Source: Chloroflexota bacterium
GTDB lineage: Bacteria; Chloroflexota; Dehalococcoidia; Lucifugimonadales; JACQTT01
Direction: 5' to 3'
NCBI GenBank assembly: GCA_016210665.1
Contig: JACQTT010000078.1
Coordinates: forward strand, 1-47,572
DNA length: 47,572 bases
Under the pieces are notes generated by a model. That model saw only the letters and a list, made by a program, of their open reading frames with translations, was not told where the DNA came from and ran no database searches. A program made the translations under genes and the position numbers. Positions 3,317 to 42,886 of this stretch are shown in pieces (position 1 is the first letter of the stretch; the number at the start of each line of letters is the position of its first letter).

Positions 3317-3391
3317 GCCAGCGTAGCTCAGTGGTAGAGCAGCGGTTTCGTAAACCGCAGGCCGTGGGTTCGAATCCCTCCGCTGGCTCCA
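3317..3391 (+). tRNA. tRNA-Thr (anticodon CGU), CCA encoded
   Basis: The cloverleaf was folded by hand: acceptor GCCAGCG/CGCTGGC, D arm GCTC-AGTGGTA-GAGC, anticodon arm GCGGT-TTCGTAA-ACCGC (anticodon CGT), variable loop AGGCC, T arm GTGGG-TTCGAAT-CCCTC (one 50:64 mismatch), discriminator T, CCA. Confidence 0.9.
3347..3391 (+). repeat. attL: 45-bp direct repeat (3' half of tRNA-Thr)
   Basis: TTCGTAAACCGCAGGCCGTGGGTTCGAATCCC[T]CCGCTGGCTCCA recurs at 12752..12796 with one mismatch (T3379 versus C12784). Confidence 0.85.
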
Positions 3392-3408
3392 GAACTTAGG
3401 CACAAAAT

Positions 3409-3436
3409 GAGGCCCCTGGGACTTTCCAGGGGCCTC
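3409..3436 (-). terminator. Hairpin terminator downstream of the integrase gene
   Basis: Perfect 11-bp stem GAGGCCCCTGG / CCAGGGGCCTC with a 6-nt loop. On the minus strand it is followed by ATTTTGTG. It lies between the tRNA 3' end and the integrase stop. Confidence 0.55.
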
Positions 3437-3446
3437 AGAGTTCCTA

Positions 3447-3468
3447 AATGGTCACGGAATGGTCACGG
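3447..3468 (+). repeat. Tandem AATGGTCACGG x2; candidate arm-type integrase binding sites (left arm)
   Basis: Two abutting 11-bp units lie 56 nt inside attL and overlap the integrase stop codon. The same motif pair recurs near attR at 12624..12646. Confidence 0.45.
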
Positions 3469-4617
3469 AACTTCTGATAGGGCAGTTTCCCCACGCCTGG
3501 CGAGCTGTCTTTCCAGCCCTTCCGCGGCGGCGGCTTGAATGTTGGGCAATAAATGGGAGTATATGTTAAGAGTAGTGGACACCTTGCTATGGCCCAGGCG
3601 CTCACTGATGGCCTTGATATTGGTTCCGTCGGCCAGTAGCAAGGATGCATGACAATGGCGCAGGTCGTGGAAACGGATGTGGGGGAGCATGGCCTTCTTG
3701 ATCACCTTTGCAAATTCCTTGCTTACACGGTCTGAGTCGATGGGAGCACCGAGAGCGTCTGTGAATACATAGCCTGCGTTGTTCCTGTATAGGTCGCTGT
3801 ACTCTAGCTGCATTTCCAACTGCTTGCTACGTATGCGGTTAAGAATGGTCATAGCTTTCTGTCCAAGGGCGATGCTTCGTCTGCTGCTCTTGGTCTTGGG
3901 CGGTCCTTCTACCAAGCCCATCCCTGTTACCCTCTGAAGAGTGCCTGTGACCCGGAGGCCATTCCCTTCAAAGTCTACTCCCCCCCACCTTAGCCCGGTA
4001 ATCTCGCTCCTTCTCATGCCTGTGAGCAGGGTTATTGTAAACAGGTCTTGGAATGGATGCCCTTCAATAACATCGAGGAATCTCTGGATAATGGGTAGAG
4101 ACCAGATTTCAAGTTCTTGTTCCTCCGGCTTGGGAGGCGAGACAGCTTGGACGGGGTTTCTGGCTAGAATACCCCACGACATAGCGTGTTTCAAAGCCTC
4201 GCTCAAGACCCTGTGGGCGTGGAGTACCGTCCGCTTACTCAGGCCACTAGAAAGCATCTGGGCGTGGAAGTCCTGAATGTGCCGAGGAGTAAGGCTCTGG
4301 ATGGGGACATGGCCGAGTAAAGGTACAATGTAAAGCTTGATATGGGTTCGATAGCCCATGACAGTACGAGGTTGGCAATGGGTGACGGCGTAGTTGTCGA
4401 GCCATGACTGCATGAACTGAGCTAAGGTTTCCTTGGACTTCTCGACATGCGTCCCAGCTTCTAATGATGCAAGGCGTTCTCTCAACACCTTCTCAGCTAT
4501 ATGTTTTGGGCCATGCACCGTCTCTGTGGCCTGCTTCCTCACGCTTGGGTCTGTAGTGGGCAGGTCGTATCTAATGCGCCAGACATTCTTACCACGTGGA
4601 CTTACTGAGCCTTTCAT
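3463..4617 (-). CDS. int: Tyrosine-type site-specific integrase
   Basis: 384 aa. The N-terminus has an arm-binding-like segment (KNVWRIRYDLP) and a SAM-like core-binding region. Catalytic signatures are TGMRRSE (Arg), HDLRHCHASLLL (His-x-x-Arg) and LGHSKVSTTLNIYSH (His/Tyr). Confidence 0.95.
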   Translation of the reverse strand: MKGSVSPRGKNVWRIRYDLPTTDPSVRKQATETVHGPKHIAEKVLRERLASLEAGTHVEKSKETLAQFMQSWLDNYAVTHCQPRTVMGYRTHIKLYIVPLLGHVPIQSLTPRHIQDFHAQMLSSGLSKRTVLHAHRVLSEALKHAMSWGILARNPVQAVSPPKPEEQELEIWSLPIIQRFLDVIEGHPFQDLFTITLLTGMRRSEITGLRWGGVDFEGNGLRVTGTLQRVTGMGLVEGPPKTKSSRRSIALGQKAMTILNRIRSKQLEMQLEYSDLYRNNAGYVFTDALGAPIDSDRVSKEFAKVIKKAMLPHIRFHDLRHCHASLLLADGTNIKAISERLGHSKVSTTLNIYSHLLPNIQAAAAEGLERQLARRGETALSEVP

Positions 4618-5641
4618 TTTTACCTCCTTGTTGTCCTTGGTCTTCTCGAAAAATCGTATGGTCTATATATTCGATTGTGGCGTCGTGGTTCAGTGGGAAC
4701 ATACGTACGAAGCCATCACCGTCGGGGTCATTAGCCCAAAAATCTTCGAGGCCGCGTTCGTATATGCGCCTCCTGACTTCATCCTCGTCGAATCCTTGGA
4801 GCCGTAAGTGTTCTTTCATCACTAATAGCGAGAACAACCATTGTTCCATTGGGGTTCTCACTTGCGCTTTCTTTCGAATATAGCGTCTAGCGGCTTCGGT
4901 ATAGGCTACCCACTCTGACGGGAGTACTGGAAAGTCGTCCTTGTCCATCACAATTTCAGGCAGGGACGTAAAGGCATCTAAGTCCAGGTCTTCACCTCCG
5001 ATTACCCTGTCAATTAACTCCATGTCCAGGTCTAAGCTCTTGCTCTGGAGAGCGGGGATTAAGTGTTGCTGAATGGCCTCTAAGTATTCGGACTTGGCTT
5101 CATTGCTGGCCCAGGGGCGAAAAGCGAGGTATGCGAATAGGTCGTCGAAGTCGGGATCGTGTCCTAACACCTCACTTTTGATTTCCCTGATTGCAAAGTT
5201 GTCTCCCCATATCGCAATGTCAAGGTAACCTGGCAGCTTCTCATCTTTCTTGTCAGTAGCAGAGACGGACTTGTAAACCCTCCACCACCATCGGACTTGC
5301 CTAACAGTTGGATGAGGGGACGCTCGACGTTCGGCTTCGTAGAGAGGAGCCATCGCTGTGATATATGCCTTCCAGGTTAGGAGCATCCTGCCGCTTGCTT
5401 CCCAGGATATTCCGTATTCCTCCATTCGATGCCAAGCGAAGGGCTGGTCTAGGTCTGTGGATAGCTTCTTGAATTCTGCGATCCACTTTTTGACTGTATC
5501 TATGCTTACTGGCTTGCGCGTCCCTTTGCCTGTGAATTCTTCTTGAAGAGCCTCATGTATGGCTGTGGGGCCAAACTTAAGAGTGGCCCACAACTTATAT
5601 GCGCGCACCTTCTGTCTATCCGTAGATTTGGGCTTTGCCAT
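4589..5641 (-). CDS. Hypothetical protein (350 aa), upstream of and overlapping the integrase gene
   Basis: Long ORF with coding-like composition, ATG at 5641 and a 29-nt overlap with the int start. No family was recognised. The basic N-terminus (KPKSTDRQKVRAYKLW...SIDTVKKWI) could be DNA-binding. Confidence 0.65.
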   Translation of the reverse strand: MAKPKSTDRQKVRAYKLWATLKFGPTAIHEALQEEFTGKGTRKPVSIDTVKKWIAEFKKLSTDLDQPFAWHRMEEYGISWEASGRMLLTWKAYITAMAPLYEAERRASPHPTVRQVRWWWRVYKSVSATDKKDEKLPGYLDIAIWGDNFAIREIKSEVLGHDPDFDDLFAYLAFRPWASNEAKSEYLEAIQQHLIPALQSKSLDLDMELIDRVIGGEDLDLDAFTSLPEIVMDKDDFPVLPSEWVAYTEAARRYIRKKAQVRTPMEQWLFSLLVMKEHLRLQGFDEDEVRRRIYERGLEDFWANDPDGDGFVRMFPLNHDATIEYIDHTIFREDQGQQGGKNERLSKSTW

Positions 5642-5642
5642 T

Positions 5643-5717
5643 TTTACACTAATGCGCTGGAATGATTTACACTTAGAGCGTTCAACGTGCCACTATTATA
5701 TCACAGAATTTTACACC
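5643..5717. promoter_or_regulatory. Three direct TTTACAC(T/C) repeats in the divergent control region of the element
   Basis: TTTACACT occurs at 5643 and 5666, and TTTACACC at 5710. Spacings of 23 and 44 bp put the sites on roughly the same helical face. They lie between the divergent ORFs 4589..5641 (-) and 5766..5969 (+). Confidence 0.35.
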
Positions 5718-5765
5718 CGTCTATAAAAGGATTACGATGAATACAGAATTTCCAGGAGGACATGT

Positions 5766-5969
5766 ATGAACACTCAGTTATCCAAGCCTACACAGGAAGG
5801 GGCTAGTATTCGGGAGCTAGCCAGACGGTTCGGGGTGAGCGCGCCGGTGCTCTACGAGCTTGCCAGACAGGACAGGCTACCTGGCTGCCGACGGATTGGC
5901 GAGAAGCGGTTCGTCGTCCATGTCCCTTCGTTTCAGCAGTGGTTGGAGAGCGGTGGAAGGGCTGAGTAA
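5766..5969 (+). CDS. Excisionase-family / MerR-like helix-turn-helix DNA-binding protein
   Basis: 67 aa with IRELARRFGVSAPVLYELARQDRLPGCRRIGEKRFVV, the typical excisionase-family HTH pattern. AGGAGG lies 6 nt upstream of the ATG. Confidence 0.75.
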   Translation: MNTQLSKPTQEGASIRELARRFGVSAPVLYELARQDRLPGCRRIGEKRFVVHVPSFQQWLESGGRAE

Positions 5970-5972
5970 GCG

Positions 5973-6098
5973 ATGGAACCCCTGAAGTTTTCGAAGGCCA
6001 TTCCCAGCCTCACCATAGGACGCTGCCAGCTGGTCCTGAAGGCGCACCTGGACGCCTACCTACAAGAGCGCCTGACTGAGGCCGAGGCGGGACGGTAA
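5973..6098 (+). CDS. Possible small ORF (41 aa) coupled to the replication gene
   Basis: ATG at 5973 lies 4 nt after the preceding stop. Its TAA abuts the ATG of the next gene (TAAATG). It is below the ORF-track size cutoff and has no recognised motif. Confidence 0.3.
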   Translation: MEPLKFSKAIPSLTIGRCQLVLKAHLDAYLQERLTEAEAGR

Positions 6099-8246
6099 AT
6101 GGCAACAGGCGTAAAGCTCTCCGTCAGCATCAATCGGCTATACCCAGGGCAGAAGCTCGTGCCTGGCGACAAGCGATGGGATAGGTTCAATGGTGACTTC
6201 AACACCGAGGAGCATACCCCGGAGAGCCTATTCGAGGAAGTGGCAAAGAATGGCAATGCGTTCTGTTGCGCCCTGAAGGGATACCGAAAGACTGAGAACT
6301 TCGTCAGTGCTCAAACTCTGGGCCTGGACTTTGATAAAGGTGCAGTTAGCCTTGAAGCGTTGCTAGGCGATTCGTTCATAGTGACGTACGCCAGCTTCAT
6401 TTACAGCACCCTCAGTCACACACCTGAACACCCACGATGGCGCGTTGTTTTCGTCCTCACCGAAGCAATTGCTAACGCTGAGACGTATCGCAAGGCGCAG
6501 ACGGCCTTCCTAGCCAAGTACGGCACAACCGACCAGTCCATCAAAGACCCTGCTAGGCTGCTCTTTGGCTCCAATCCTACAAACGGCGTGTGGCACTACC
6601 TGGGGAACCTGCTGCCTATGGCCGAAGTCTTGGAGCTTGTCAGTGAGTATGAGGACAAACGCCGAGTGCTGGAACGCGAGATAGGCCGGCGGCAACTGCC
6701 TGCGATTGACTCGTCCAGGATCAGGGGCAGCACACCTGACGAAAGGTATGTGGGTAGGGCGATTGAAGAAGAATCGAACTGGCTGGCCTCCAGAGTGAAA
6801 GGCACAGGCGACCGACATAGCGGGCTTATCGTCGTGGCTGCGAGACTGGAGAGCCTGCGCCTCAGCGAGTGGCTAACGCCAGAGTCCAGGGCGACGATTA
6901 ACCCGTACGAGGTTGCATTAGAAGCAGCTATTTCGAATGGCTACGTCGCCGAATACGGTGAAGAGGATGCCTGTCGAGCGATAGCCTGGGGGATTGGAGT
7001 CGCAGAACCACGTCCCATACCTTCTGACTGGGGACGGCAGCACGGGGATGGAGGCAGGGAAGGTCAAGTTGGACCGAGCGTCGGCGTGGGATCGGACAGC
7101 ATGCCCCAATCGCTCCTCTTCAGAACAGCCAGGGAAGTGTCCGTTCTCACCCCGGAGCGCCCCAATTGGATTGTGGATAAGCTCATAGCGGAGGGGGCTA
7201 TTACGGAGTTGGATGCGAAGGTGAAAGTGGGCAAGACCACTTTCATTCTCGCAATGGTTGCTGCGCTGCTTCAGGGCGAGGAGTTCCTTGAATTTTCGAC
7301 ACAGTCAACACCAATAGTTTATCTCACGGAGGAGAGGCCGCCGAGTTTCAGGGCGGTTTTGGACCGCGTGGGCCTAACAGATGAGGAGAAGCTACATATT
7401 GTGTTCAAATCGGAGGTGCGAAATTTGGAATGGCCTATAGTGGTAAGTTTGGCTGTCCGACGTGCGAAGGAAGTTGGTGCGGGGCTTCTAGTAGTGGATA
7501 CGCTAGCGCGCTGGGCGGGGCTGAAGGACGATTCTGAAAACAACTCGGGTGCTGCTATGGAGGCAATGGCTCCCTTGGAGGAAGCGGCGGCACAGGGGCT
7601 GGCGGTGCTAATTTCTCGCCACGATAGGAAAAGTGGCGGGGAGATAGGCGACAGTGGTCGCGGTTCGTCGGCATTTAGTGGAATCAGCGACATAATAATA
7701 ACGCTCCGGCGGGCGGACACAAAGGGGCATCCCTCTAGGAGACAGATAACAGGCGTAGGGCGATTCGATGGCATCCCTGAAAGCCTGGTGGTGGAGTGGA
7801 AGGACGGGAAGTACTTAGCCTTGGGTGATAGGATCGACGTAGAACGCATCGAGGCGCGGGAGAAGCTGCTGGCCGGTTTGCCAGGTTCAGACGATGCACC
7901 GGGGCCAATACTTGACAAACTAGTCGAAAGCACAGGCTGCAAACGTGCCACACTGGGGCGGGCGCTGAAGGAGTTGGAGGAGGAGGGTCTTATCAAGAGA
8001 CACCCTGACGCTGGAAAGACAAAGCGAGGTTTCGGATACACGCTGGCGGAAAAGCGAGAGTCCACCTATAGGGAGGACCCTGGAATGTTCCCTTTTGATC
8101 ACGTCCCTCACGAGGACGTGCCAAAGGCAGAGTCCAGGGTACGTACCCCTGGACATAAGCCTTTAGAAAGCAGTGTGTCCAGCCCTCAATCCTTTACTGG
8201 ATACACCATTTACCCCAATGGCGAGGAGAAGGAATGGACGGGGTAG
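6099..8246 (+). CDS. Replication protein: primase-polymerase-like N-terminal domain, RecA/AAA_25-like P-loop ATPase and C-terminal winged helix
   Basis: 715 aa. The N-terminal region has an acidic LGLDFDKG motif and HPRWRVVFVL (primase/prim-pol-like, from recall). The central region has Walker A DAKVKVGKTTF and Walker B LLVVDTLARW. The C-terminus has an HTH (CKRATLGRALKELEEEGLIKR). Confidence 0.8.
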   Translation: MATGVKLSVSINRLYPGQKLVPGDKRWDRFNGDFNTEEHTPESLFEEVAKNGNAFCCALKGYRKTENFVSAQTLGLDFDKGAVSLEALLGDSFIVTYASFIYSTLSHTPEHPRWRVVFVLTEAIANAETYRKAQTAFLAKYGTTDQSIKDPARLLFGSNPTNGVWHYLGNLLPMAEVLELVSEYEDKRRVLEREIGRRQLPAIDSSRIRGSTPDERYVGRAIEEESNWLASRVKGTGDRHSGLIVVAARLESLRLSEWLTPESRATINPYEVALEAAISNGYVAEYGEEDACRAIAWGIGVAEPRPIPSDWGRQHGDGGREGQVGPSVGVGSDSMPQSLLFRTAREVSVLTPERPNWIVDKLIAEGAITELDAKVKVGKTTFILAMVAALLQGEEFLEFSTQSTPIVYLTEERPPSFRAVLDRVGLTDEEKLHIVFKSEVRNLEWPIVVSLAVRRAKEVGAGLLVVDTLARWAGLKDDSENNSGAAMEAMAPLEEAAAQGLAVLISRHDRKSGGEIGDSGRGSSAFSGISDIIITLRRADTKGHPSRRQITGVGRFDGIPESLVVEWKDGKYLALGDRIDVERIEAREKLLAGLPGSDDAPGPILDKLVESTGCKRATLGRALKELEEEGLIKRHPDAGKTKRGFGYTLAEKRESTYREDPGMFPFDHVPHEDVPKAESRVRTPGHKPLESSVSSPQSFTGYTIYPNGEEKEWTG

Positions 8247-36510: not shown

Positions 36511-36745
36511 CTATTTTAGCAGCTTCGGGGGATTTGGGCTGCTACTCCCTTCCGACCTCTGGCACCGAAAGGTTTCGACAAATCTTGCGTGCGAGCCGAT
36601 CCGGAATCTCGGGATGCCGAGGTACGGCCTCTACAGCACCGGTGGACATCACCCATAAACGCTTTATTGCTGACCCAGCCATTAGTATAATGCTCTCGGC
36701 AGCTTTATCACAAGGATCGTCACTGATGCCAAAGAAGGGCGGACA

Positions 36746-38047
36746 ATGACTGCTTCACAGATGACAGGTAGCTCCTCCTTGGGGCGCCTGGTTTCCATTC
36801 TCAAGGTGCGCAACTTCTCACTCCTTTGGTGCTCTTCCATTTTTTCAGGCCTATCCGAGAATATGAGCGCCATCATTCTGGCTTGGCTAGTCCTGAAACT
36901 CACCGACTCTCCCTTCTATGTGGGCCTTTGGGCAGCTACTCGCTTCGTCGGAATGCCCCTCGGTATTGTCATCGGCTCTCTGGCTGATCGTTTGCCCAGG
37001 CGGAATCTCCTTCTGGCCGTCAAGGCTCTCATGGTCGCCGTGGCTGCGGGAATGCTCGTCCTTCTTTCAATGGACAAGATAATAATATGGCCCATCTTTG
37101 CCCTCACCTTCATCAAGGGCATATTTACCGCCACCCTGATGCCCGTGCAGCTACCCCTCATAGCGGATGTGGTATCGCCTAAGCAACTGCCCAACGCCCT
37201 GCCTCTGAGCACCATGGGCCAGAACGCCACGTCCCTGTTCGGTCCTTTCCTGGGCGGCCTCCTATTCGCCTTATTAGGCCCTCGTAACTCTTACGCAGTA
37301 GTCCTGGCACTGATCTGCATCGGCATTCTTGCTATTCTGTTGATGCGCCCCGTGGAGCAGCGTTCGGCACCCAGAGGAGAATCCCCTCTGCGAGCAATCT
37401 TAATGGGCATAGCTCACGTCCGTCGCAACGACGTGCTCCTGGGCATTTTGCTCTTGATAGTGGGTTTTAACCTTACTACCTTGATCCTGTCATTTACCCT
37501 AATGCCAGTCTTCGCTAAAGACGTGCTGGGAACCGACGCCAAAGGCCTCGGCTTCCTCATGCTTATGATGGGTGTAGGAGCAATAATAGGGTCCACAGTC
37601 ATGGCCTTTCTCTCCCGAATGCAGTATCTAAGCACAGGTTTCCTTCTCTGGACAAACGTCTTCTGGAATGCGTTAATAATTCTGCTTTCTGTAACCTCGC
37701 TGCTGACCTATTCCTTTGGGCTAGCCGCCTTAATACTTGTCTTCATTGGGCTTTGCCAGAACACCATGATGGTCGGCCCCCATCTTGTGCTGTTGAGGGA
37801 GTCAGACCCCGAGTTCCGAGGAAGGGTAATAGGGCTGCGCAGCGCCGCAATAACCCCTCTAGCCCTCAGCAGCCTCTACGGCGGTGCACTGGCGGAGTTG
37901 TTGGGAACGCCCATGGCACTGATAATTATTTGCCTTGCGGGCATTCTGCTGACGGGTGTTTTAGCCTTTGGTCTTCCCGGTATGTGGAGGCGTATCCCGC
38001 ACCCAGAGACGGGGCGAGCGCAATCGGCTGAGACAACTGTTCCTTAG
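36746..38047 (+). CDS. MFS transporter
   Basis: 433 aa with 12 predicted hydrophobic segments and the MFS loop motif GSLADRLPRRNLL. It belongs to the same family as the fragments at the window start. Confidence 0.9.
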   Translation: MTASQMTGSSSLGRLVSILKVRNFSLLWCSSIFSGLSENMSAIILAWLVLKLTDSPFYVGLWAATRFVGMPLGIVIGSLADRLPRRNLLLAVKALMVAVAAGMLVLLSMDKIIIWPIFALTFIKGIFTATLMPVQLPLIADVVSPKQLPNALPLSTMGQNATSLFGPFLGGLLFALLGPRNSYAVVLALICIGILAILLMRPVEQRSAPRGESPLRAILMGIAHVRRNDVLLGILLLIVGFNLTTLILSFTLMPVFAKDVLGTDAKGLGFLMLMMGVGAIIGSTVMAFLSRMQYLSTGFLLWTNVFWNALIILLSVTSLLTYSFGLAALILVFIGLCQNTMMVGPHLVLLRESDPEFRGRVIGLRSAAITPLALSSLYGGALAELLGTPMALIIICLAGILLTGVLAFGLPGMWRRIPHPETGRAQSAETTVP

Positions 38048-38297
38048 AGTCAGGGGATCAAAGGCGTCATCTGGAGGGATATCTAATGGAGACCAGAAGA
38101 CAGAAACCGAAGGCATCCCGGTTCAGCGCCAAGGCTGTGTTCGAATAGACCGGCAACACCTGGGCCGAGGGGTTTGCCGTTTTCGACGCCCCCGACTTCG
38201 AGGATAAGCGCTTAGGCAGAAAGACTTGAACTCAAAGTGGCACTGGGCAGAAAATTGCTGAAGCTATTCGGAGCCATCCCTAGCTGGGATTGTAAAG

Positions 38298-38327
38298 CTA
38301 CCACTGGACGAACATGGGGATGTATGC
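38298..38327 (-). repeat. dnaN 3'-end repeat, copy E (most distal)
   Basis: CTACCACTGGACGAACATGGGGATGTATGCC. The reverse complement reads ...YIPMFVQW-TAG. Confidence 0.85.
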
Positions 38328-38399
38328 CCAATCATAGCGTTTTACGCGATGATGGCGTGCTGGGTTTCCACGACTCAGTATCGCGTTCGCTGAATCCAT

Positions 38400-38570
38400 T
38401 CAGAAGGCAAGTCCTTGCCACTGCGCTCCTCTGAGGGGAAGGCGCAGTTGGCGGGCCACAGCCTCGGACACGACAGTGAAGGTTGCACCCGTATCCACTA
38501 GGGCTCGGACCGTTAGACTCTGCCCATCAAAGGGGTTGCTAAGCTTTACCTCCACTTCAACGTGTCCCAT
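38400..38570 (-). pseudogene. Truncated retropepsin-like (clan AA) aspartic protease ORF, cassette 4
   Basis: ATG 38570 is preceded by GGAAGGAGA, directly after repeat D. MGHVEVEVKLSNPFDGQSLTVRALVDTGATFTVVSEAVARQLRL carries the DTG active-site motif, but the ORF stops after 56 aa. Proteins of this family that I recall are ~110-130 aa. Confidence 0.5.
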
Positions 38571-38583
38571 GGCTCTCCTTCCC

Positions 38584-38613
38584 CTACCACTGGACAAACA
38601 TGGGGATGTCAGT
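38584..38613 (-). repeat. dnaN 3'-end repeat, copy D
   Basis: CTACCACTGGACAAACATGGGGATGTCAGTG. The reverse complement reads ...DIPMFVQW-TAG. 26 of the first 27 nt are identical to copy E. Confidence 0.85.
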
Positions 38614-38623
38614 GCCTTCGGAG

Positions 38624-39589
38624 TTAGGTTGGAGACTCTGATAAGTTCAATAGATCGGCCAAGCCTACGTTGGCATTTTTGAACTCCTCCATCATGTCAA
38701 ATCCTCTGGGCAATGGCAAATGCTCTCTTAATCTTCCCTGTTCCTTGAGGGTTACATACGTGCCAAAGCGGTCGAGCACAACCCGCGTCAGATAGATGCT
38801 GAACCGCTGCTCCTGGAGCGTAGGCCGTCGAACTTTTTGGGGGTCCTTGACATGCCGAGCAATAGTTATGTTATTAGCGATGGTGAAGAACCGCGTCACA
38901 TGGGATTTCGGGATCATCAGCTCGCGGATCATGACGTCCCTGGAGGTTGTCTTACGAGAGGTAGCCAGACCTGATTGAGACCTTTTGAGGGCATCGAAGT
39001 ATTGCTCCACCCATTCAAGTGACCGCGCACAAAACACAATCGCCTCTTCAGGGATCGAGAGGGCTAGTCGATAGTCCAGCATGGCCAATCTGAAGTGGGG
39101 GGCGATTTCGCTAAGGATCAGGTATGCTCTGCCTTTGCGCAGCTGCTCGGTCGTGATCACAGGAGCATCTCGCCTGGAAACGATTGCCCCGAGTTTTCCC
39201 AATACGTAATTTCGCGAAGCCGGATTGGGGGCGGGCTTATCTTCTATCCATTGGATCGGTTCAAAGTCGTACGGATATCCCACCTGCAAGGTCAATGTGC
39301 TGATTATTGTACGCAGATCCTCTAGCCCCTGCTGGGTCTTGGCGAGCCATTCCTTCGAGTCAGATTCAAACATGATCCACACCAGATCGTCTTTGAAGGA
39401 AAACTGGCAGCGGTCCCCGAGGTTTATCTTGAGGTCGATCTCTCTAAAGGAGCCCTGAGGAAGAAGCCTACAAGTTACAATGAACTGAGAGGGCTTTGCG
39501 TCAGCCGCGCCTTCACCCGCCGCCGGTGTGTCAGAAACGTCCATCATCTGCTGTCCTGCTTGGGATATTTCGTGAGCCAGGATACTCAA
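38624..39589 (-). CDS. Hypothetical protein (321 aa from TTG, 307 aa from ATG 39547), cassette 3
   Basis: This single long ORF fills the cassette between repeats C and D and ends 11 nt before repeat D. No motif was recognised. AGGA lies 6 nt upstream of ATG 39547. Confidence 0.7.
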   Translation of the reverse strand: MSILAHEISQAGQQMMDVSDTPAAGEGAADAKPSQFIVTCRLLPQGSFREIDLKINLGDRCQFSFKDDLVWIMFESDSKEWLAKTQQGLEDLRTIISTLTLQVGYPYDFEPIQWIEDKPAPNPASRNYVLGKLGAIVSRRDAPVITTEQLRKGRAYLILSEIAPHFRLAMLDYRLALSIPEEAIVFCARSLEWVEQYFDALKRSQSGLATSRKTTSRDVMIRELMIPKSHVTRFFTIANNITIARHVKDPQKVRRPTLQEQRFSIYLTRVVLDRFGTYVTLKEQGRLREHLPLPRGFDMMEEFKNANVGLADLLNLSESPT

Positions 39590-39632
39590 CCGGACGTAGC
39601 CTGACCAACTCGCTAAATCTCAAGGCCACGCT

Positions 39633-39662
39633 CTACCACTGCACGAACATGGAAATGACCAC
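39633..39662 (-). repeat. dnaN 3'-end repeat, copy C
   Basis: CTACCACTGCACGAACATGGAAATGACCAC. The reverse complement reads VVISMFVQW-TAG. Confidence 0.85.
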
Positions 39663-39710
39663 GGGTGTGTCGCCCCTGCTCTGTAAAAGAGCAGACAGAA
39701 GACACCCCCT

Positions 39711-39959
39711 TTACCCCACTGCTTCTAGGCGCTGCTCGTTCTGTATGAGAACCTTTGGATTAGCATTTGGCTTGGGAACAGAAAGTCCTCGTTCCTGCAG
39801 AATCGCGATATGCTCCTCTATTCCCCACTTTGCTTGGTAAAGGCAGTCCTCCACCGAATGCCCTATGCCCATGAAGCCCTCGAGGTCAGGGGAGTAGAAC
39901 CCGAAGAACGTCGGGTCTTTAGTCGCTTCTATGACTAACGAGTATTTCAGATCTATCAT
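39711..39959 (-). CDS. hicB: HicB-family antitoxin (UPF0150), cassette 2
   Basis: MIDLKYSLVIEATKDPTFFGFYSPDLEGFMGIGHSVEDCLYQAKWGIEEHIAILQERG is the typical HicB N-terminal fold pattern. Its ATG overlaps the hicA stop (ATGA). Confidence 0.8.
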   Translation of the reverse strand: MIDLKYSLVIEATKDPTFFGFYSPDLEGFMGIGHSVEDCLYQAKWGIEEHIAILQERGLSVPKPNANPKVLIQNEQRLEAVG

Positions 39960-40159
39960 GACCGTCTTCCCCGCCTCTTTATTTCCGCAACCTTCAAAAT
40001 AGCATCGCACATCCCGCTGGGGACTTCCTTGGATCCATGGTAGTCAACCCTGATAATTTTGTCCACTCCCGGTTTGGCGTAGTATCGTATTGACCCCTTT
40101 TCTCTCACGATCGCAAATCCAGCTCGCTCCAACAGCCGGACTAGCTCGTTAAACGTCAA
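39956..40159 (-). CDS. hicA: HicA-family toxin-like protein, cassette 2
   Basis: 67 aa with FNELVRLLERAGFAIVREKGSIRYYAKPG...VDYHGSKEVPSGMCDAILKVAEI (YcfA/HicA pattern). The TTG start lies 10 nt after the repeat-B TAG. The usual GSH histidine reads GSI here. Confidence 0.75.
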   Translation of the reverse strand: MTFNELVRLLERAGFAIVREKGSIRYYAKPGVDKIIRVDYHGSKEVPSGMCDAILKVAEIKRRGRRS

Positions 40160-40168
40160 CTAGCGCCC

Positions 40169-40198
40169 CTACCACTGCACGAACATGGGCATCACGAC
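40169..40198 (-). repeat. dnaN 3'-end repeat, copy B
   Basis: CTACCACTGCACGAACATGGGCATCACGAC. The reverse complement reads VVMPMFVQW-TAG, the same nine residues as the real DnaN C-terminus. Confidence 0.85.
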
Positions 40199-40211
40199 AC
40201 AACTCAACCCG

Positions 40212-40472
40212 TCACAGGTAAGCTTCTCGCCGGTGCTTGATTCGGTACACCCGGACAAGACTTCTCTGATCATCTACAGTATAGAGAATCCTGTAGTCTC
40301 CTATCCTGAGACGCCAGCCCTCCGTCTCTCTGCCTCGCAGTTTCACAGCACCCCTAGGGGTAGGGTCTTCTGCCAGTTGTAGGAGGCGTAGGTCTATCCT
40401 CCGCAACGCTTGCCGAGGTAGCGAGCGTAGCTCCTTCTCTACCCGCCGCTCCAGGAGCACCTTATAGGTCAA
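40212..40472 (-). CDS. relE: RelE/ParE-family type II toxin, cassette 1
   Basis: 86 aa with LERRVEKELRSLPRQALRRIDLRLLQLAEDPTPRGAVKLRG...WRLRIGDYRILYTVDDQRSLVRVYRIKHRREAY, the canonical RelE/ParE pattern. It ends 11 nt before repeat B. Confidence 0.9.
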   Translation of the reverse strand: MTYKVLLERRVEKELRSLPRQALRRIDLRLLQLAEDPTPRGAVKLRGRETEGWRLRIGDYRILYTVDDQRSLVRVYRIKHRREAYL

Positions 40473-40675
40473 AGATTCCCTTTGGCCCTTAGGGCTTTCT
40501 GAATCGTCTGGTAGTCGCGGAAGCCCTTTGCGGTGCGCACAGCCTCGTCCAGGTCCAAGGCGTCTTCCAACTCCTCCAGACGCTTCACAAGCCCCCTGTA
40601 CTCCCGCAGATCTATCACAACGGCCTTCTTACGACCACTTGAATCGGTTAAGTATCTCGTTTTAGCTGTAGCCAC
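40469..40675 (-). CDS. Antitoxin partner of the RelE/ParE toxin (Phd/YefM- or RelB-like), cassette 1
   Basis: It has a 4-nt overlap with the toxin start. The sequence AVVIDLREYRGLVKRLEELEDALDLDEA is antitoxin-like. The preferred GTG start at 40675 lies 8 nt after AGGAG, which itself follows the dnaN TAG. The ORF-track start at 40693 would overlap dnaN. Confidence 0.7.
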   Translation of the reverse strand: MATAKTRYLTDSSGRKKAVVIDLREYRGLVKRLEELEDALDLDEAVRTAKGFRDYQTIQKALRAKGNL

Positions 40676-40686
40676 AGTAGCTGCTC

Positions 40687-40716
40687 CTACCACTGCACAA
40701 ACATCGGCATGACCAC
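40687..40716 (-). repeat. dnaN 3'-end repeat, copy A (authentic gene terminus)
   Basis: CTACCACTGCACAAACATCGGCATGACCAC is the reverse complement of the last nine codons of dnaN plus the stop (VVMPMFVQW-TAG). Confidence 0.9.
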
Positions 40717-41820
40717 ATGGACGTAGTTCTTAGAGCCTACGGGTCTGATAACGCCGGGGCTGGAGGGTGTGCTGGTCTCCAGGGCTACCTCGCCCCTCTC
40801 CAGGACCGATAACACCTCTAGCAGATACCTGCTGTTGAAGGCTATCTTGGCCTCTTCGCCATCTACTTTAGCATCTATCTCTCCCTGGTTGTCCCCCACC
40901 TCCTCGGCACGAGAGGAGATGAGGAGCTTGCCTGCCATAGCCTCGGGCACAGGAGTCATCTGAAGCCTTATGATTCCACTGCCATCCCTGGCAAAGATAG
41001 AAGCGGCACGAGCTGCCCGGGAGAACTCCTGCAGGTCCATGACGGCTCTGGTGCCATACTGTTGGGGGATCAGCTGAGAGTAGTTGGGGAAGGTGCCCTG
41101 AATGAGCTGAGAGACCATCTCCACGTTCTTCAGCCGAAATAGCACCTGGTTCTTGGCAGCAGTCACAGTCATCTCGACCAGCTCCTCCTGATCCCCTATA
41201 AGGCGGTTCAGTTCTTGAAGGGTTCTGGCGGGGACGATGAAGTCCAGAGAATCGGATATTGCCTCCGCCAGAGCGCCAGTATGGACGGCGAGACGGAATC
41301 CATCGGCGGCTGCAAAGGTGAAGGAGTCCCCATTCATCTCTATCTTGACGCCAGTAAGAACAGGGCGAGAATCCTCGGTAGCCGCTGCGAAGACGACCTG
41401 GGATATGGCGGCCTTGAGGTCTTGTGGGGCTACCTTGGCCACTAGGCCCGCCTGGATAGAGGGTATGGGAGGGAACTCCTCGGCGTCAGTGCCGTTGATA
41501 TGAGCCTCGAATCTTGCGCACCGTAGGTGGAGGCCACGGGGACGGGCAGTCATAGCTATGTCTATCTTTTCATTGGGCAGAGAGTTGACAAACTCGGTGA
41601 GCAGCCTTGCCGGCACGGTGACCGCACCCTCCGTCTCCACATCGGCTCCTATCCAGGTACTTATGGCGATCTCAAGGTTGGTGGTCGCTAACTTCAGCCT
41701 TGAATGGTCAGTAGATAAGAGAACGTTCTGGGTTATCGGCAGGGTAGTTCTGGAGGCTACGGCCCTCCCTACTATCCCTAGACCTCGGTTAAGATTTTCT
41801 TGAAGACAGGACAACCGCAT
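40687..41820 (-). CDS. dnaN: DNA polymerase III beta subunit (sliding clamp)
   Basis: 377 aa with MRLSCLQENLNRGLGIVGRAVASRTTLPITQNVLL..., a three-domain clamp length, and C-terminus ...VVMPMFVQW. RBS AAGGGGGG precedes the start. Confidence 0.95.
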   Translation of the reverse strand: MRLSCLQENLNRGLGIVGRAVASRTTLPITQNVLLSTDHSRLKLATTNLEIAISTWIGADVETEGAVTVPARLLTEFVNSLPNEKIDIAMTARPRGLHLRCARFEAHINGTDAEEFPPIPSIQAGLVAKVAPQDLKAAISQVVFAAATEDSRPVLTGVKIEMNGDSFTFAAADGFRLAVHTGALAEAISDSLDFIVPARTLQELNRLIGDQEELVEMTVTAAKNQVLFRLKNVEMVSQLIQGTFPNYSQLIPQQYGTRAVMDLQEFSRAARAASIFARDGSGIIRLQMTPVPEAMAGKLLISSRAEEVGDNQGEIDAKVDGEEAKIAFNSRYLLEVLSVLERGEVALETSTPSSPGVIRPVGSKNYVHVVMPMFVQW

Positions 41821-41847: not shown

Positions 41848-41876
41848 AGTATAAGATTACAATTAAAGGGCGTCAA
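41848..41876 (-). promoter_or_regulatory. Sigma70-like promoter TTGACG-17-TATACT upstream of dnaN
   Basis: On the minus strand the -35 is the complement of 41871..41876 and the -10 the complement of 41848..41853. The spacer is 17 nt, and the promoter lies ~28 nt upstream of ATG 41820. Confidence 0.5.
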
Positions 41877-41966
41877 TGCCTTGAGGCACTTGCTTCTAAG
41901 AGCTTCGTCAATTTGCCATCACCGGATGAATCATTATATACTAGTGCTTAATTCCGAAAGAAAGTT

Positions 41967-42053
41967 GTCATTCTGAGCCCCGACTCGTCGGGGCGAAGAA
42001 TCTGGGGCTGGGCCTCCCCCCAGACCCTTCGTCGCTCCGCTCCTCAGGGTGAC
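41967..42053. repeat. Structured REP/MITE-like element, family 1
   Basis: GTCATTCTGAGCCCCGACTCGTCGGGGCGAAGAATCTGGGG...CCCCAGACCCTTCG...CTCAGGGTGAC has two imperfectly inverted halves with an internal hairpin. A second copy is at 45630..45720. Confidence 0.7.
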
Positions 42054-42109
42054 GGAAGCAACACGTTTTTTCTGAAACAGAGCACTAGCCTTTCCAATAA
42101 TTAGGGAGG

Positions 42110-42886
42110 ATGGAAATAGATACGCAGCGCCTGGAAAGATTGCTGGAGCAGTTCAGAGTTGGCGAGGTAGGCCTTAAGGAGGTAATTTCTCAACTAAAGG
42201 CTATGCCTTATCAGGACTTGGATTTCGCCAAGGTGGACCACCATCGGGAGCTACGAAGAGGCTTCCCGGAGGTCATCCTTGGGCAGGGCAAGACTCCTGA
42301 ACAGATCTCCGCCATCTCCGAAGCCATCCTAGAGAACAGCGATCGCCTCCTGGTAACCAGGGTTGACCAAGGCGTTTTTGAAGAGGTAAAGAAGAAAGTG
42401 CCCGATGCCTCTTATAGCCCAAGGGCCAAGGCCATTGTGGTTAACCGCAGGAGAGAAGTGGCCATGATAACAGGCATTGTGGTCGTCAGCGGCGGCACCT
42501 CCGACCTACCTGTTGCAGAAGAGGCCGCTTTGACGGCAGAGCTTATGGGCTGCCAGGTAAAACACATTATTGACGTGGGAGTTTCTGGTTTGCATCGCCT
42601 GTTGAGCCACCTACCCAGCTTACAGCACGCCCGGGTAATAGTAGCCGTAGCAGGTATGGAAGGGGCCTTGCCCAGCGTGGTGGCGGGCCTGGTTGCGGCA
42701 CCCGTAATTGCAGTGCCTACAAGCATAGGATACGGAGCAAGTTTCGAGGGTATTGCTCCCCTCTTGACCATGTTGAATAGCTGTGCCCCAGGCGTATCCG
42801 TAGTCAACATTGACAACGGTTTCGGGGCCGGCTACCTGGCCGCCTTGATTAACATGGCGTCAGTTCAAGGTACGGCTGAAAAGTAA
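42110..42886 (+). CDS. larB: Nickel-pincer cofactor biosynthesis protein LarB (AIR-carboxylase-like)
   Basis: 258 aa with YQDLDFAKVDHHRELRRGFPEVILGQGKT...VVSGGTSDLPVAEEAALTAELMG...VAVAGMEGALPSVVAGLVAAPVIAVPTSIGYG...LLTMLNSCAPGVSVVNIDNGFGAG, the LarB signature. Confidence 0.85.
   Translation: MEIDTQRLERLLEQFRVGEVGLKEVISQLKAMPYQDLDFAKVDHHRELRRGFPEVILGQGKTPEQISAISEAILENSDRLLVTRVDQGVFEEVKKKVPDASYSPRAKAIVVNRRREVAMITGIVVVSGGTSDLPVAEEAALTAELMGCQVKHIIDVGVSGLHRLLSHLPSLQHARVIVAVAGMEGALPSVVAGLVAAPVIAVPTSIGYGASFEGIAPLLTMLNSCAPGVSVVNIDNGFGAGYLAALINMASVQGTAEK

Follow-up and report, generated by a model that had tools for sequence, protein, structure and literature searches.

The 3' end of dnaN is probably a natural attB for phages and integrative elements of the Dehalococcoidia that encode a large serine recombinase (LSR), and the window, by which we mean the whole 47,572-nt stretch of Chloroflexota DNA analyzed here, probably carries a recombinase-less stack of units built up at that site; the repeats that it contains are attachment-site scars. 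We propose that the attachment site is centered on the CC of the proline codon in ...V-M-P-M-F-V-Q-W-stop, that the attP of an incoming element would be an imperfect palindrome whose right arm copies the last dnaN codons, and that integration would rebuild dnaN and displace the previous tail downstream along with everything behind it. Each further insertion at the site nearest the gene would add a unit to the stack, the newest always lying next to dnaN. In the window the stack consists of four small cassettes, of which two hold toxin-antitoxin pairs, one an unknown gene, and one a gene fragment, and of a fifth unit that is disrupted; all lie on the dnaN strand and are probably transcribed and expressed by read-through from dnaN. 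Because the right arm of attP must encode P-M-F-V-Q-W-stop, attL would stay attB-like and attR attP-like, an arrangement that would permit serial re-use of the same site. By analogy with cis-mobilizable elements, the units of the window may have been moved, now or once, in trans by an LSR encoded elsewhere.

The window has exactly five copies of the core CTACCACTGSACRAACAT, all on one strand, at 38298, 38584, 39633, 40169, and 40687, against a chance expectation of 0 matches (100 shuffles). A repeat search returned a single 35-nt family of five copies with spacings of 286, 1049, 536, and 518 and 66 to 86% identity to the reference copy; the in-frame readings are VVMPMFVQW*, (C)VVMPMFVQW*, VVISMFVQW*, DIPMFVQW*, and YIPMFVQW*. 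An earlier note on this DNA had reported five co-oriented copies of the dnaN terminus bounding four cassettes, and the exact core matches bear this out. The window probably comes from a metagenome assembly, where repeats can be mis-joined, but an assembly artefact or chance repetition has a negligible probability given that shuffling yielded no matches, that no two of the five copies are identical and the cassettes between them are unique, and that the architecture recurs in many independent assemblies, including four (L142 to L145) with a dnaN-hicAB-tail arrangement.

The dnaN gene itself (40687 to 41820, minus strand, as are all the sites and units below) encodes a 377-aa DNA polymerase III beta clamp with all three beta-clamp domains in Pfam and is 52 to 82% identical to Dehalococcoidia dnaN genes; its last 7 codons (P-M-F-V-Q-W-stop) make up the right half of the attachment site. 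Site A (40683 to 40717; GTGGTCATG-CC-G ATGTTTGTGCAGTGGTAG) is the live, attB/attL-like dnaN terminus, with the outer motif TAC GTC CAT 18 nt from CC. Site B (40165 to 40199; GTC GTG ATG CCC ATG TTC GTG CAG TGG TAG) is a dnaN tail that has been displaced and whose left arm is also dnaN-like; its four differences from site A are all synonymous. Site C (39629 to 39663; D-T-P-V-V-I-S-M-F-V-Q-W*), is likewise a displaced dnaN tail but an older one, in which two amino acids are changed and the center is TC instead of CC. The displaced tail at site D (38580 to 38614; cactGACATC-CC-C) has a short element-type left arm, and that at site E (38294 to 38328; AACGCTATGattGGGCATACATC-CC-C) has a decayed element-type (attP-type) left arm, as judged by comparison with the consensus TAYACGCATGnnnGGACARACATC-CC-S. 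The repeats of the window are of two kinds, D and E being LSR-type sites and B and C displaced true dnaN tails, a division that the earlier note did not draw.

Cassette 1 (40187 to 40686) pairs a RelB/Phd-like antitoxin (about 40469 to 40675; Pfam RelB-like, 6e-5; PhdYeFM, 4e-3) with a ParE/RelE-family toxin (40212 to 40472; ParE_toxin, 3e-10), and has GGAG immediately after the dnaN stop codon and a GTG start 11 nt past it. Cassette 2 (39651 to 40168) consists of hicA (39956 to 40159; HicA_toxin, 5.5e-14), with a TTG start 9 nt past the stop of site B, hicB (39711 to 39959; HicB_lk_antitox, 5.6e-5), and a hairpin at 39663 to 39707 located by hairpin search. Cassette 3 (38602 to 39632) opens with a hicA 5' remnant (39598 to 39623) that aligns with the start of cassette 2 at 20 of 26 nt, followed by an ORF (38624 to 39547 or 39589) for a 307- to 321-aa protein; the latter had no match in the local Pfam copy, and its 40 homologues carry the precomputed annotation PF26504 DUF8168_C, the nearest of them (75%) being a chromosomal gene that is remote from dnaN and has no site close to it. 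Cassette 4 (38316 to 38583) holds a truncated retropepsin-like aspartyl protease ORF (38400 to 38570), a 57- to 65-aa fragment that covers only about positions 6 to 38 of 90 in the profiles (gag-asp_proteas, 1.6e-7; Asp_protease_2, 2e-7), with an ATG 13 nt past the stop of site D and GGAGAG before it.

The earlier note had the repeats delimit four units; those four cassettes are confirmed, but the array does not end with them, as it runs on into a fifth, disrupted unit (36539 to 38297) recognized by blastn and alignment against the L141 array. Site E and the 105 nt downstream of it (38322 to 38196) are 77% identical over 129 nt to an L141 cassette leader, the leader of the fifth unit (38297 to 38196) being homologous to that of the third unit of L141, and a HicA-like toxin 3' remnant (36682 to 36542) lies at the far side, where 36644 to 36539 is 93% identical over 106 nt to the end of the same L141 cassette. 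An MFS transporter gene (36746 to 38047, plus strand; Pfam MFS_3/MFS_1) replaces the antitoxin and the 5' part of the toxin, and no sixth site is left in the unit. Since leader and toxin remnant both resemble one L141 cassette, the variable region reaches to about 36539, past 38298. Decay thus has a polarity along the array, from synonymous differences only between A and B, through two replacements in C, to truncation of cassette 4 and disruption of unit 5, which upholds the earlier proposals of serial site-specific insertion at the dnaN 3' end, each incomer bringing a replacement terminus and the oldest lying distal, and of stepwise accretion and decay.

The motif marks at least 120 loci, almost all of them, among the matches listed, in Dehalococcoidia/Chloroflexota; about 90 of the matches listed are dnaN ends, with proteins only 52 to 70% identical to that of the window. 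These loci were chosen by the motif itself, and frequencies drawn from them are biased accordingly. The motif is specific to dnaN ends and element attachment sites and is not a generic dispersed repeat. The only recombinase recurrent at the dnaN site is a large serine recombinase: ORFs with Resolvase, Recombinase, and Zn_ribbon_recom domains abut the dnaN stop codon in L009, L035, L039 (two copies), L103, L122, and L140 (where the LSR is frameshifted), convergent with dnaN and with 3' ends that overlap the motif, the LSR C terminus ..PTTA(Q/R)T(S/W)A* being read from the complement of the dnaN tail, and C-terminal LSR remnants occupy the same position in L093, L045, L112, and L057. PDB searches matched the TP901-1 integrase, the SPbeta integrase, and another 500-aa serine integrase. 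Two elements supply the attP. Contig L146 is an ordinary tailed temperate phage, with genes for a head-tail adaptor, major tail protein, tape-measure protein, CI-like repressor, and serine integrase; at the 3' end of the integrase gene, with no dnaN nearby, it carries CTTAGCGTCATAGTGCAGACATG-CC-GATGTTTGTTCAATGGGGCTAAG, the arms of which are palindromic at 16 of 23 positions. PAYF01000042.1, a 10.4-kb LSR element with terminal redundancy, carries GGACAAACAT-CCCG-ATGTTTGTCCAGTGGTAG; both attP sites are palindromic, and in both the right arm mimics the dnaN tail.

The suggestion in the earlier note that the units are integrase-less stands for the array, as no recombinase lies within about 30 kb of it and an LSR profile search of the whole 47.6-kb window found neither an LSR nor a fragment of one, but does not hold for the system as a whole, in which a co-occurring recombinase, as that note had proposed to look for, is found at other dnaN ends. 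A tyrosine integrase at 3463 to 4617 adjoins tRNA-Thr and belongs to a separate element. The integron, Xer/dif, and tycheposon comparators offered previously do not fit the recurrence of LSRs and the LSR attB/attP anatomy of the site. An integron-like system, in which an IntI-type tyrosine recombinase inserts promoterless cassettes through folded single-stranded attC-like sites, would fit the cassette-sized, toxin-antitoxin-rich units, the co-orientation of 11 of 13 non-LSR cassettes across loci with the upstream gene, and the palindromic element-type sites; it is nevertheless highly improbable, as phmmer with the window's own integrase, a search of limited sensitivity, detected no IntI or tyrosine recombinase beside about 145 loci, the core is GTTYGTS and not GTTRRRY, the sites are compact two-half-site palindromes around a dinucleotide rather than R''-L''...L'-R' with extrahelical bases, and the recombinase that does co-occur is an LSR. 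Equally improbable are Xer-dependent modules (of the dif/pdif type, or IMEX) that hijack host XerC/D: the lack of an integrase in the units and the short bounding repeats, about 28 nt long and built of two inverted arms, are shared features, but the site is unlike dif and lacks an ..ATAA-N6-TTAT.. core, its location is a gene 3' end and not the terminus, every copy is in direct orientation, and LSR genes overlap the site in relatives while the phage has a matching attP beside its serine integrase.

The geometry of the site is that of an LSR target. The CC is conserved in 100 of 100 dnaN ends and 42 of 46 distal sites, the preceding base is G in all 100 dnaN ends and non-G in 27 of the 46 distal sites, and the CC at the center of the site behaves as the probable crossover point. 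In 76 of 85 dnaN arms the outer motif TAY-RYN-CAY lies 18 nt from this CC, against 24 nt in element arms; as in phage serine integrases, where the zinc-ribbon-domain motif of attB is shifted 5 bp towards the center relative to attP (PMC3783163), the dnaN motif is nearer the center (by 6 nt), a spacing expected of LSR attB and attP. The A118/LI, Bxb1, phiC31, TP901-1, and SPbeta integrases share with the dnaN-site LSRs the Resolvase, Recombinase, and zinc ribbon domains and an attP palindrome of about 50 bp around a central dinucleotide; unlike theirs, the attP right arm here must encode P-M-F-V-Q-W-stop, and the integrase reading frame runs across the site.

Several observations count against the LSR model: the lack of an LSR in the window, the right flanks of sites A to D, which are without the GTAA(A/T) that follows the stop codon at 7 of 9 LSR-abutting sites, the ordinary context of the cassette 3 homologue, and the dnaN-type left arms of B and C. 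Such arms span about 12 to 16 nt at site B, about 27 nt at site C, 30 to 69 nt in L088, L017, L047, and L022, and about 75 to 80 nt in L142, and plain LSR exchange between attP and attB does not produce the real-dnaN arms of B, C, L142, L022, and L047. Homology-driven exchange, in which repeated dnaN tails (18 to about 100 nt) serve as portable homology for RecA-type recombination of cassettes, whether by Campbell integration of a circle with a dnaN-tail copy or by double crossover in dnaN and a tail copy, is a possible but doubtful explanation; LSR elements would then only have seeded the first duplications. The variable arm lengths speak for it, as do the distal left arm of L142, which is the host's own dnaN sequence (44 of 45 nt identical next to the center), and the arrays of the window, L141, and L142, near which no recombinase was found. 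On the other side, several sites offer RecA only a very short stretch of homology, exchange of this kind cannot make the element-type arms seen at D, at E, and at many further loci, the switch in identity exactly at CC is left unexplained, and a single homologous crossover accounts poorly for the uneven divergence in L142, whose two 18-nt tails differ at 4 positions while the arm differs at 1 of 45.

Comparison between genomes showed the cassette turnover that the earlier note had anticipated. Synteny with the closest dnaN relatives (82, 77, and 74% identity, none closer than 82%) ends exactly at the dnaN stop codon, cassette presence and order differ between genomes with breakpoints at the repeats, and hicAB, second in the window, is the first cassette after dnaN in L142 to L145; the module also lies beside sites in L141 and L057. 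L141 site 2676 joins the right flank of site E to a left arm that comes from the hicB side and resembles the one at site C; this junction matches the window array minus cassettes 3 and 4. Only the coding regions of hicAB are conserved between the window and L142, and since the flanks are not, recent transfer of an intact unit is unsupported. Arrays with several sites occur in L027 (four), L050, L071, and L141 (three each), and about ten loci with two.

Pure decay, by which the units would be eroded complete LSR elements or prophages and the small cassettes would never have moved alone and would not be mobilizable now, is unlikely. It could draw on the LSR C-terminal remnants and the frameshifted LSR described above, on "empty" units of 74 to 83 bp in L027, L037, and L101, and on the truncation of cassette 4 and disruption of unit 5; yet three of the four window cassettes (1, 2, and 4) have a ribosome-binding site and an ORF start 9 to 13 nt past the repeat stop codon on the dnaN strand, a position filled in intact elements by the convergent LSR gene, the window has no LSR trace, and in four genomes hicAB cassettes are again found beside dnaN tails.

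In keeping with the earlier note, the searchable library contains no paper that treats dnaN as an attachment site. Among known systems the Dehalococcoides ssrA genomic islands (DsiB) come closest, with SCCmec next; the dnaN system is neither an integron nor a Xer system. In the ssrA islands (McMurdie et al. 2011) the gene for the LSR DsiB borders the island and runs convergent with the target gene, its 3' end reaching over attL so that the stop codon falls outside the island; direct repeats of the ssrA 3' end, each distal one with a conserved element-specific motif just upstream, delimit tandem arrays in which the most recent island adjoins the gene, and many islands (15) have no integration module and were interpreted as cis-mobilizable (PMC3146451). 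The bacterial class, the edge LSR over attL, the single-copy essential gene 3' end, its direct repeats with the upstream motif, the tandem arrays, and the units that lack an integration module are shared. The ssrA target, however, is a tmRNA and not a protein-coding end (dnaN, last 7 codons), the islands measure about 10 to 30 kb against 0.07 to 1.6 kb for the dnaN units, and their cargo is reductive dehalogenases rather than toxin-antitoxin and miscellaneous genes; none of the dnaN LSRs examined was accompanied by a DsiA/ParB/Mom-type integration module (in L140 an HTH_17 gene is found instead), and some dnaN distal repeats, unlike those of ssrA, have true dnaN sequence on the left.

The staphylococcal and enterococcal cassette chromosomes (SCCmec, ECC) use serine recombinases (CcrAB at rlmH) and an attB in the last codons of a conserved housekeeping gene, and repeated integration-site sequences bound tandem composite islands that include recombinase-less elements. 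These features are all paralleled at dnaN; SCC differs in target gene, phylum, the use of a CcrA/CcrB pair or CcrC where dnaN has single LSR genes, and units of tens of kilobases. Neither the ssrA islands nor SCC had been named in the earlier note. Chromosomal integron arrays are alike in that cassettes enter at one fixed point behind an expressed gene, the units are small and mostly co-oriented, many being too tightly packed to hold a promoter, toxin-antitoxin modules are among them, palindromic sites lie at the cassette ends, and the order varies between genomes, whereas the dnaN system has no IntI and no attC R'/R'' consensus, relies on a serine and not a tyrosine recombinase, and has sites that repeat a coding terminus. 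ICESt1 and ICESt3, at the 3' end of fda, show accretion and cis-mobilizable elements, with mobilization demonstrated there (as cited in PMC3146451); like the dnaN arrays, they have integrase-less units, flanked by functional-looking att sites, that have accumulated at the 3' end of a gene in tandem with elements that do encode an integrase, and they differ in their tyrosine recombinase and host.

Five copies of the dnaN 3' end lie in one orientation in the window, as the earlier note had held, starting at 40687 (the authentic dnaN terminus), 40169, 39633, 38584 and 38298, and we designate them sites A to E, with site A being the live gene end. The 18-nt dnaN end, ATG TTY GTS CAG TGG TAG on the minus strand, is present in all five, shuffled sequence contained no copy of it, and a repeat search united the copies in one 35-nt family with spacings of 518, 536, 1049 and 286. 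From dnaN outward, they read in frame VVMPMFVQW, VVMPMFVQW, VVISMFVQW, DIPMFVQW and YIPMFVQW, each followed by a stop codon. The compact cassettes that the note had placed on the dnaN strand were recovered in all four intervals: cassette 1 encodes a RelB/Phd-like antitoxin and a ParE/RelE toxin, cassette 2 encodes HicA and HicB (HicB at 39711-39959, 82 aa), cassette 3 encodes a 307-321-aa protein of unknown function, and cassette 4 encodes a retropepsin-like protease fragment. In three of them, the ORF begins just after the repeat stop, again as described, with a gap of 9-13 nt; cassette 3 opens with a 26-nt remnant of the hicA start, 9 nt after the stop codon, as does hicA in cassette 2. The array had been described as free of recombinases, and a Pfam search of the window ORFs placed none near it; a profile search for large serine recombinases (LSRs) across the whole window gave no match. 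The four units are real, but the array is longer than the note had allowed. Site E and the following 105 nt (38322-38196) match, at 77% identity, the opening of a toxin-antitoxin cassette in L141, a locus from another genome, and positions 36644-36539, encoding the C-terminal part of a HicA-like toxin, match the end of this cassette at 93% identity. An MFS transporter gene (36746-38047, plus strand) stands between the two pieces, on the opposite strand from the array, and the pieces therefore mark a fifth, disrupted unit after site E and extend the variable region to approximately 36539-40686. Within this unit, the MFS_3-type gene occupies the place of the antitoxin and of the toxin's 5' region; no sixth repeat survives beyond it. 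Rfam recognized two tRNAs only in the window and thus no known RNA at the repeats, a promoter scan of the array found no convincing internal promoters, and terminator-like hits in the array were no commoner than in shuffles; from their spacing and orientation, the cassettes may be expressed by read-through from dnaN.

A scan for a 24-nt version of the motif, with one genome per species, returned at least 120 loci; among the matches listed, nearly all came from metagenome-assembled genomes (MAGs) of Dehalococcoidia or other Chloroflexota, including Tepidiformaceae, SAR202 and Dehalococcoidaceae. Approximately 90 of these at least 120 loci are dnaN ends whose encoded DnaN is only 52-70% identical to that of the window, and approximately 25-30 matches have no adjacent dnaN, the occurrence of the motif outside the gene being a point that the earlier note had proposed to check. 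At least a dozen loci among the matches listed carry 2-4 copies in a single orientation, 74 bp to 5 kb apart. The scan favors one codon choice, and the census loci were selected by the motif itself; relatives found by protein similarity have synonymous tail variants, such as GTT CAA TGG TGA, and we therefore dropped the notion that the nucleotide sequence of the dnaN tail is universally conserved. Scanning of metagenomes with the window DnaN yielded only approximately 36% identical clamps from other phyla, and no exact database match to this protein is on record.

Clustering of ORFs over the motif loci revealed a single recurrent family directly after dnaN, convergent with it and with its last codons overlapping the motif. 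Its Resolvase, Recombinase and Zn_ribbon_recom Pfam domains identify the family as LSRs, and the closest matches among solved structures are TP901-1, SPbeta and other serine integrases. Profile searches located full LSR copies at the site in L009, L035, L039 (two, in tandem), L103, L122 and L140 and C-terminal remnants against it in L093, L045, L112 and L057; LSR genes also adjoin the attachment site in the viral contig L146 and in PAYF01000042.1, the contig of an LSR element. L122 is an IMG/VR provirus contig that begins inside the dnaN tail and also carries genes for a helicase and a Cas4-like nuclease. In L140, with a dnaN gene 74% identical to that of the window, the LSR gene is frameshifted and is followed by an HTH_17 gene, and no second site marking the far end of the element was found within 10 kb. 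The strand opposite P-M-F-V-Q-W encodes the LSR C terminus, ..PTTA(Q/R)T(S/W)A-stop, with the LSR stop codon placed past the center of the site: the ORFs stop 8 nt beyond the motif inside dnaN, and in L039 and PAYF01000042.1 they run into the arm of the preceding element. No tyrosine recombinase was detected at any of the loci by phmmer with the window's own integrase as the query; a search of viral contigs with LSR peptide patterns, which were too strict, gave no confirmed relatives. Genome loci were taken as fixed 8-kb blocks, with most far ends of elements falling outside. In 66 cases, a dnaN end had 2 kb or more of sequence downstream, and 12 of these have a further site or an abutting LSR or LSR remnant.

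The center of the site is the CC of the proline codon, which is present in 100 of 100 dnaN ends and 42 of 46 distal copies. The base before it is G in all 100 dnaN ends and a base other than G in 27 of the 46 distal copies; sequence ancestry therefore appears to switch at this dinucleotide, as would be expected of the 2-nt crossover of a serine recombinase. Many distal copies possess an element-specific left arm, TAYACGCATG-nnn-GGACARACAT, which is an inverted repeat of the tail, and the element-type consensus GGACARACAT-sCCs-ATGTTYGTCC comprises the two inverted half-sites expected of an LSR site, which spans about 40-50 bp around a conserved, non-palindromic central dinucleotide. An outer motif, TAY-RYN-CAY, lies 24 nt from CC in element-type arms. 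The dnaN gene has this motif too, as the codons Y-V/T-H, and in 76 of 85 dnaN arms its distance from CC is 18 nt. In the sites of serine integrases, the zinc-ribbon-domain motif is 5 bp nearer the center in the host site, attB, than in the element site, attP (PMC3783163). The outer motif at dnaN is likewise nearer the center than its counterpart in the elements, and we suggest that it is a protein contact. The right flank after the stop codon is GTAA(A/T) in seven of nine LSR-abutting sites, and several genomes have, after the final site of their array, a hairpin and T run like that after intact dnaN elsewhere; insertions in these genomes lie between dnaN and its terminator. "Empty" units of 74-83 bp were also seen (L027 at 3414-3514, L037 at 2148-2248 and L101 at 1554-1645, oriented), in which two sites are parted only by a conserved extended arm of approximately 45 nt (..AGGTATTrA..TAYACGCATG..GGACARACAT).

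Two contigs carry what should be the free form of the element site. L146, found by a DNA pattern for the element-type site, is a 25-kb viral contig encoding a head-tail adaptor, a major tail protein, a tape-measure protein, a CI-like repressor and a serine integrase; it has no dnaN, and the 3' end of its integrase gene carries CTTAGCGTCATAGTGCAGACATG-CC-GATGTTTGTTCAATGGGGCTAAG, a site with two 23-nt arms that match as a palindrome at 16 of 23 positions and with a right arm encoding M-F-V-Q-W-G-stop. PAYF01000042.1 (L095 plus L011, 13,605 bp) has a terminal redundancy of 3.2 kb at 99.5% identity, which makes it a 10.4-kb circular or tandem LSR element, and carries GGACAAACAT-CCCG-ATGTTTGTCCAGTGGTAG within the 3' end of its integrase gene. 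Both sites fit the expected appearance of an LSR attP for a dnaN-tail attB. PAYF01000042.1 has a low GC content and is binned in a "Methanobacteriota archaeon" MAG, although its dnaN-tail attP is of the Dehalococcoidia type; mis-binning is the probable cause, the alternative being an element of an unexpected host.

We consider it likely that a site-specific LSR hotspot accounts for the repeats. LSR-encoding phages and integrative elements would take the dnaN end as attB, and attP would bring a replacement tail, so that dnaN survives; the gene-proximal junction would stay attB-like, permitting later elements to enter, and older tails with their cargo would be pushed downstream to decay there. 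Site A is the live end, resembling attB or attL (the junction on the gene side). Site E, reading AACGCTATGattGGGCATACATC-CC-C, and, more weakly, site D, reading GACATC-CC-C, have element-type left arms and are taken as attR-type scars, and because these are the distal boundaries of units 4 and 3, we assign both units to LSR-type events. Sites B and C have dnaN-type left arms and once served as functional dnaN ends: four synonymous changes set B apart from A, whereas in C, M has become I and P has become S, and the outer motif is of the Y-T-H type as opposed to the window's own Y-V-H. Decay grows with distance from dnaN, which fits insertion at the gene-proximal site. A plain LSR exchange between attP and attB does not leave dnaN sequence on the left side of a distal site. 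For the two toxin-antitoxin cassettes, we propose addition by events in which genuine dnaN sequence was carried along or copied. Arms of this kind recur at distal sites in L022, L047, L088, L017 and L142, where they are dnaN-like over approximately 30 to approximately 75-80 nt; they may reflect an attP that reproduces a longer stretch of dnaN, the action of another recombinase that crosses over further upstream, or homologous recombination and gene conversion among the tails. Such arms could stem from an attachment-site copy carried by a phage. Two IMG/VR viral contigs, L121 (5551-6882, oriented) and L123 (1474-2541, oriented), encode beta-clamp homologues of their own (443 and 355 aa), both of which end in ..MPMFVQW-stop with the same nucleotide motif.

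The stack in the window is an integrase-less accretion, and the chances that the small cassettes were themselves moved by an LSR acting in trans seem to us about even. A broader reading, which we put forward only tentatively and regard as doubtful, would make the dnaN terminus a class-wide, integron-like platform with a serine recombinase and a protein-coding attachment site. Small toxin-antitoxin, defense and metabolic units with no space for a promoter would be captured singly behind a constitutively expressed essential gene, transcribed from dnaN to the displaced terminator and stabilized by the toxin-antitoxin modules; LSRs could shuffle, excise and reinsert them in trans, since attL stays attB-like and attR stays attP-like.

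Comparison of the region downstream of dnaN among relatives, another check that had been proposed, shows that its content differs. Of the dnaN relatives available, the nearest three (82, 77 and 74% identity) have the upstream larB-like gene or dnaN itself in common with the window, and all similarity ends exactly at the dnaN stop, after which come, in one each, no recognizable insertion, IS3 elements and an LSR element. A search with HicB retrieved four assemblies (L142-L145) in which dnaN is followed immediately by hicA-hicB, the second cassette in the window, and then by a second dnaN tail, with HicB being 81% identical to that of the window. In L141, the site that comes after hicB (86.6% nucleotide identity) has the window's post-E leader on its right, and this locus looks like the window array minus cassettes 3 and 4, with the apparent breakpoints at the repeats. 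Among the loci compared all against all beside their sites, LSRs, lineage-conserved native neighbors and hicB recurred, and no other cassette was common to them. Cargo at other loci includes genes for a cyclase, a DUF2269 membrane protein, a methyltransferase, a DnaJ-domain protein and a radical-SAM enzyme. We rejected the cassette 3 gene as a cassette-bound gene elsewhere: its nearest homologues (P0002 and P0003) lie in ordinary chromosomal, toxin-antitoxin-rich surroundings without the dnaN-tail motif. The HicB protein of cassette 2 has thousands of relatives at 74-85% identity in Chloroflexi, Nitrospirae, Blastocatellia and Manganitrophaceae, a conservation across phyla that is unusually high for a toxin-antitoxin component. 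In L057 (97-2550, oriented), a contig labeled Desulfonatronospira, probably by mis-binning, a dnaN tail has directly behind it an LSR C-terminal remnant, a 296-aa ORF, a 298-aa reverse-transcriptase-like ORF (YADD) and a hicB relative, a block that looks like a defense-type island at the dnaN hotspot. A 5-kb unit with hydrogenase-like genes lies between two dnaN tails in L097 (1237-6251, oriented); approximately 45 nt after both tails are identical, followed at both by the start of a histidine-phosphatase gene, and the duplication there thus reaches past the tail.

By analogy, the dnaN array would work like the ssrA islands of Dehalococcoides and SCC elements. In the ssrA islands, the 3' end of the integrase gene dsiB overlaps attL and its stop codon is outside the island (McMurdie et al., PMC3146451), and the same arrangement is found in the dnaN LSRs. 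The islands, however, target the 3' end of ssrA (tmRNA), with a 20-bp direct repeat, where the target here is dnaN, and the window contains no tmRNA gene; their integration module includes a second, small serine recombinase, DsiA, with ParB and Mom, and the neighbor of the L140 LSR is HTH_17. Because the target differs and a module of this kind was not seen beside the dnaN LSRs examined, we do not count the array as a member of their family. The likenesses to integrons and to Xer-dependent modules drawn in the earlier note did not hold. No IntI with attI lies by the array, the sole integrase of the window being tRNA-linked, phage type and 35 kb away, and attC has R''(RYYYAAC)...R'(GTTRRRY) and a folded bottom strand with extrahelical bases, whereas the core here is GTTYGTS and the palindrome consists of two compact half-sites. 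Xer/dif modules and IMEX use a 28-bp dif-like site (XerC arm, 6-bp center and XerD arm) that lies close to the terminus or alternates on plasmids, whereas the sites here have no dif-like core, are direct copies at a gene end and are linked to LSR genes. In layout, the array does correspond to cis-mobilizable elements, which are integrase-less, att-bounded units located where integrase-bearing elements insert; in relatives, such integrase-bearing elements occupy the dnaN site. In the literature searched, a Dehalococcoides genome paper included, which did not span all journals, dnaN was nowhere described as an attachment site, either for serine recombinases or in Dehalococcoidia.

Seven codons of an essential replication gene double as an attachment site across a bacterial class, and any element with a matching arm rebuilds dnaN on entry. 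This is a second such case in the class and applies to a new target the logic known from SCCmec and from the ssrA islands of Dehalococcoides, with the addition that such sites can gather integron-sized cassettes as well as large islands. For annotation, short MFVQW-stop pseudo-termini downstream of dnaN can be taken as marks of island boundaries. We know of no genetic system for Dehalococcoidia organisms at present, and a phage-encoded serine integrase whose natural attB is conserved in the class, including Dehalococcoidaceae MAGs, may be a candidate tool. Elsewhere in the window, dnaN is not adjacent to dnaA, and within the 290-nt gap that separates it from a divergent larB-like gene is a GC-rich segment showing inverted symmetry (41860-42110; ..CACCCTGAGGAGCGGAGCGACGAAGGGTCTGGGG..CCCCAGATTCTTCGCCCCGACGAGTCGGGGCTCAGAATGACA..); this segment has no Rfam match, and we rejected it as a dispersed repeat upstream of dnaN on account of its single occurrence in the window. 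A separate integrative element occupies 3317-8246, with a tRNA-Thr gene (3317-3391, plus strand), a phage-type tyrosine integrase gene (3463-4617, minus strand), an unannotated 350-aa ORF and a gene for a 715-aa AAA_25/HTH protein (6099-8246); it has the appearance of a typical island of the tRNA-targeting type, with no relation to the dnaN array, from which 35 kb separate it.
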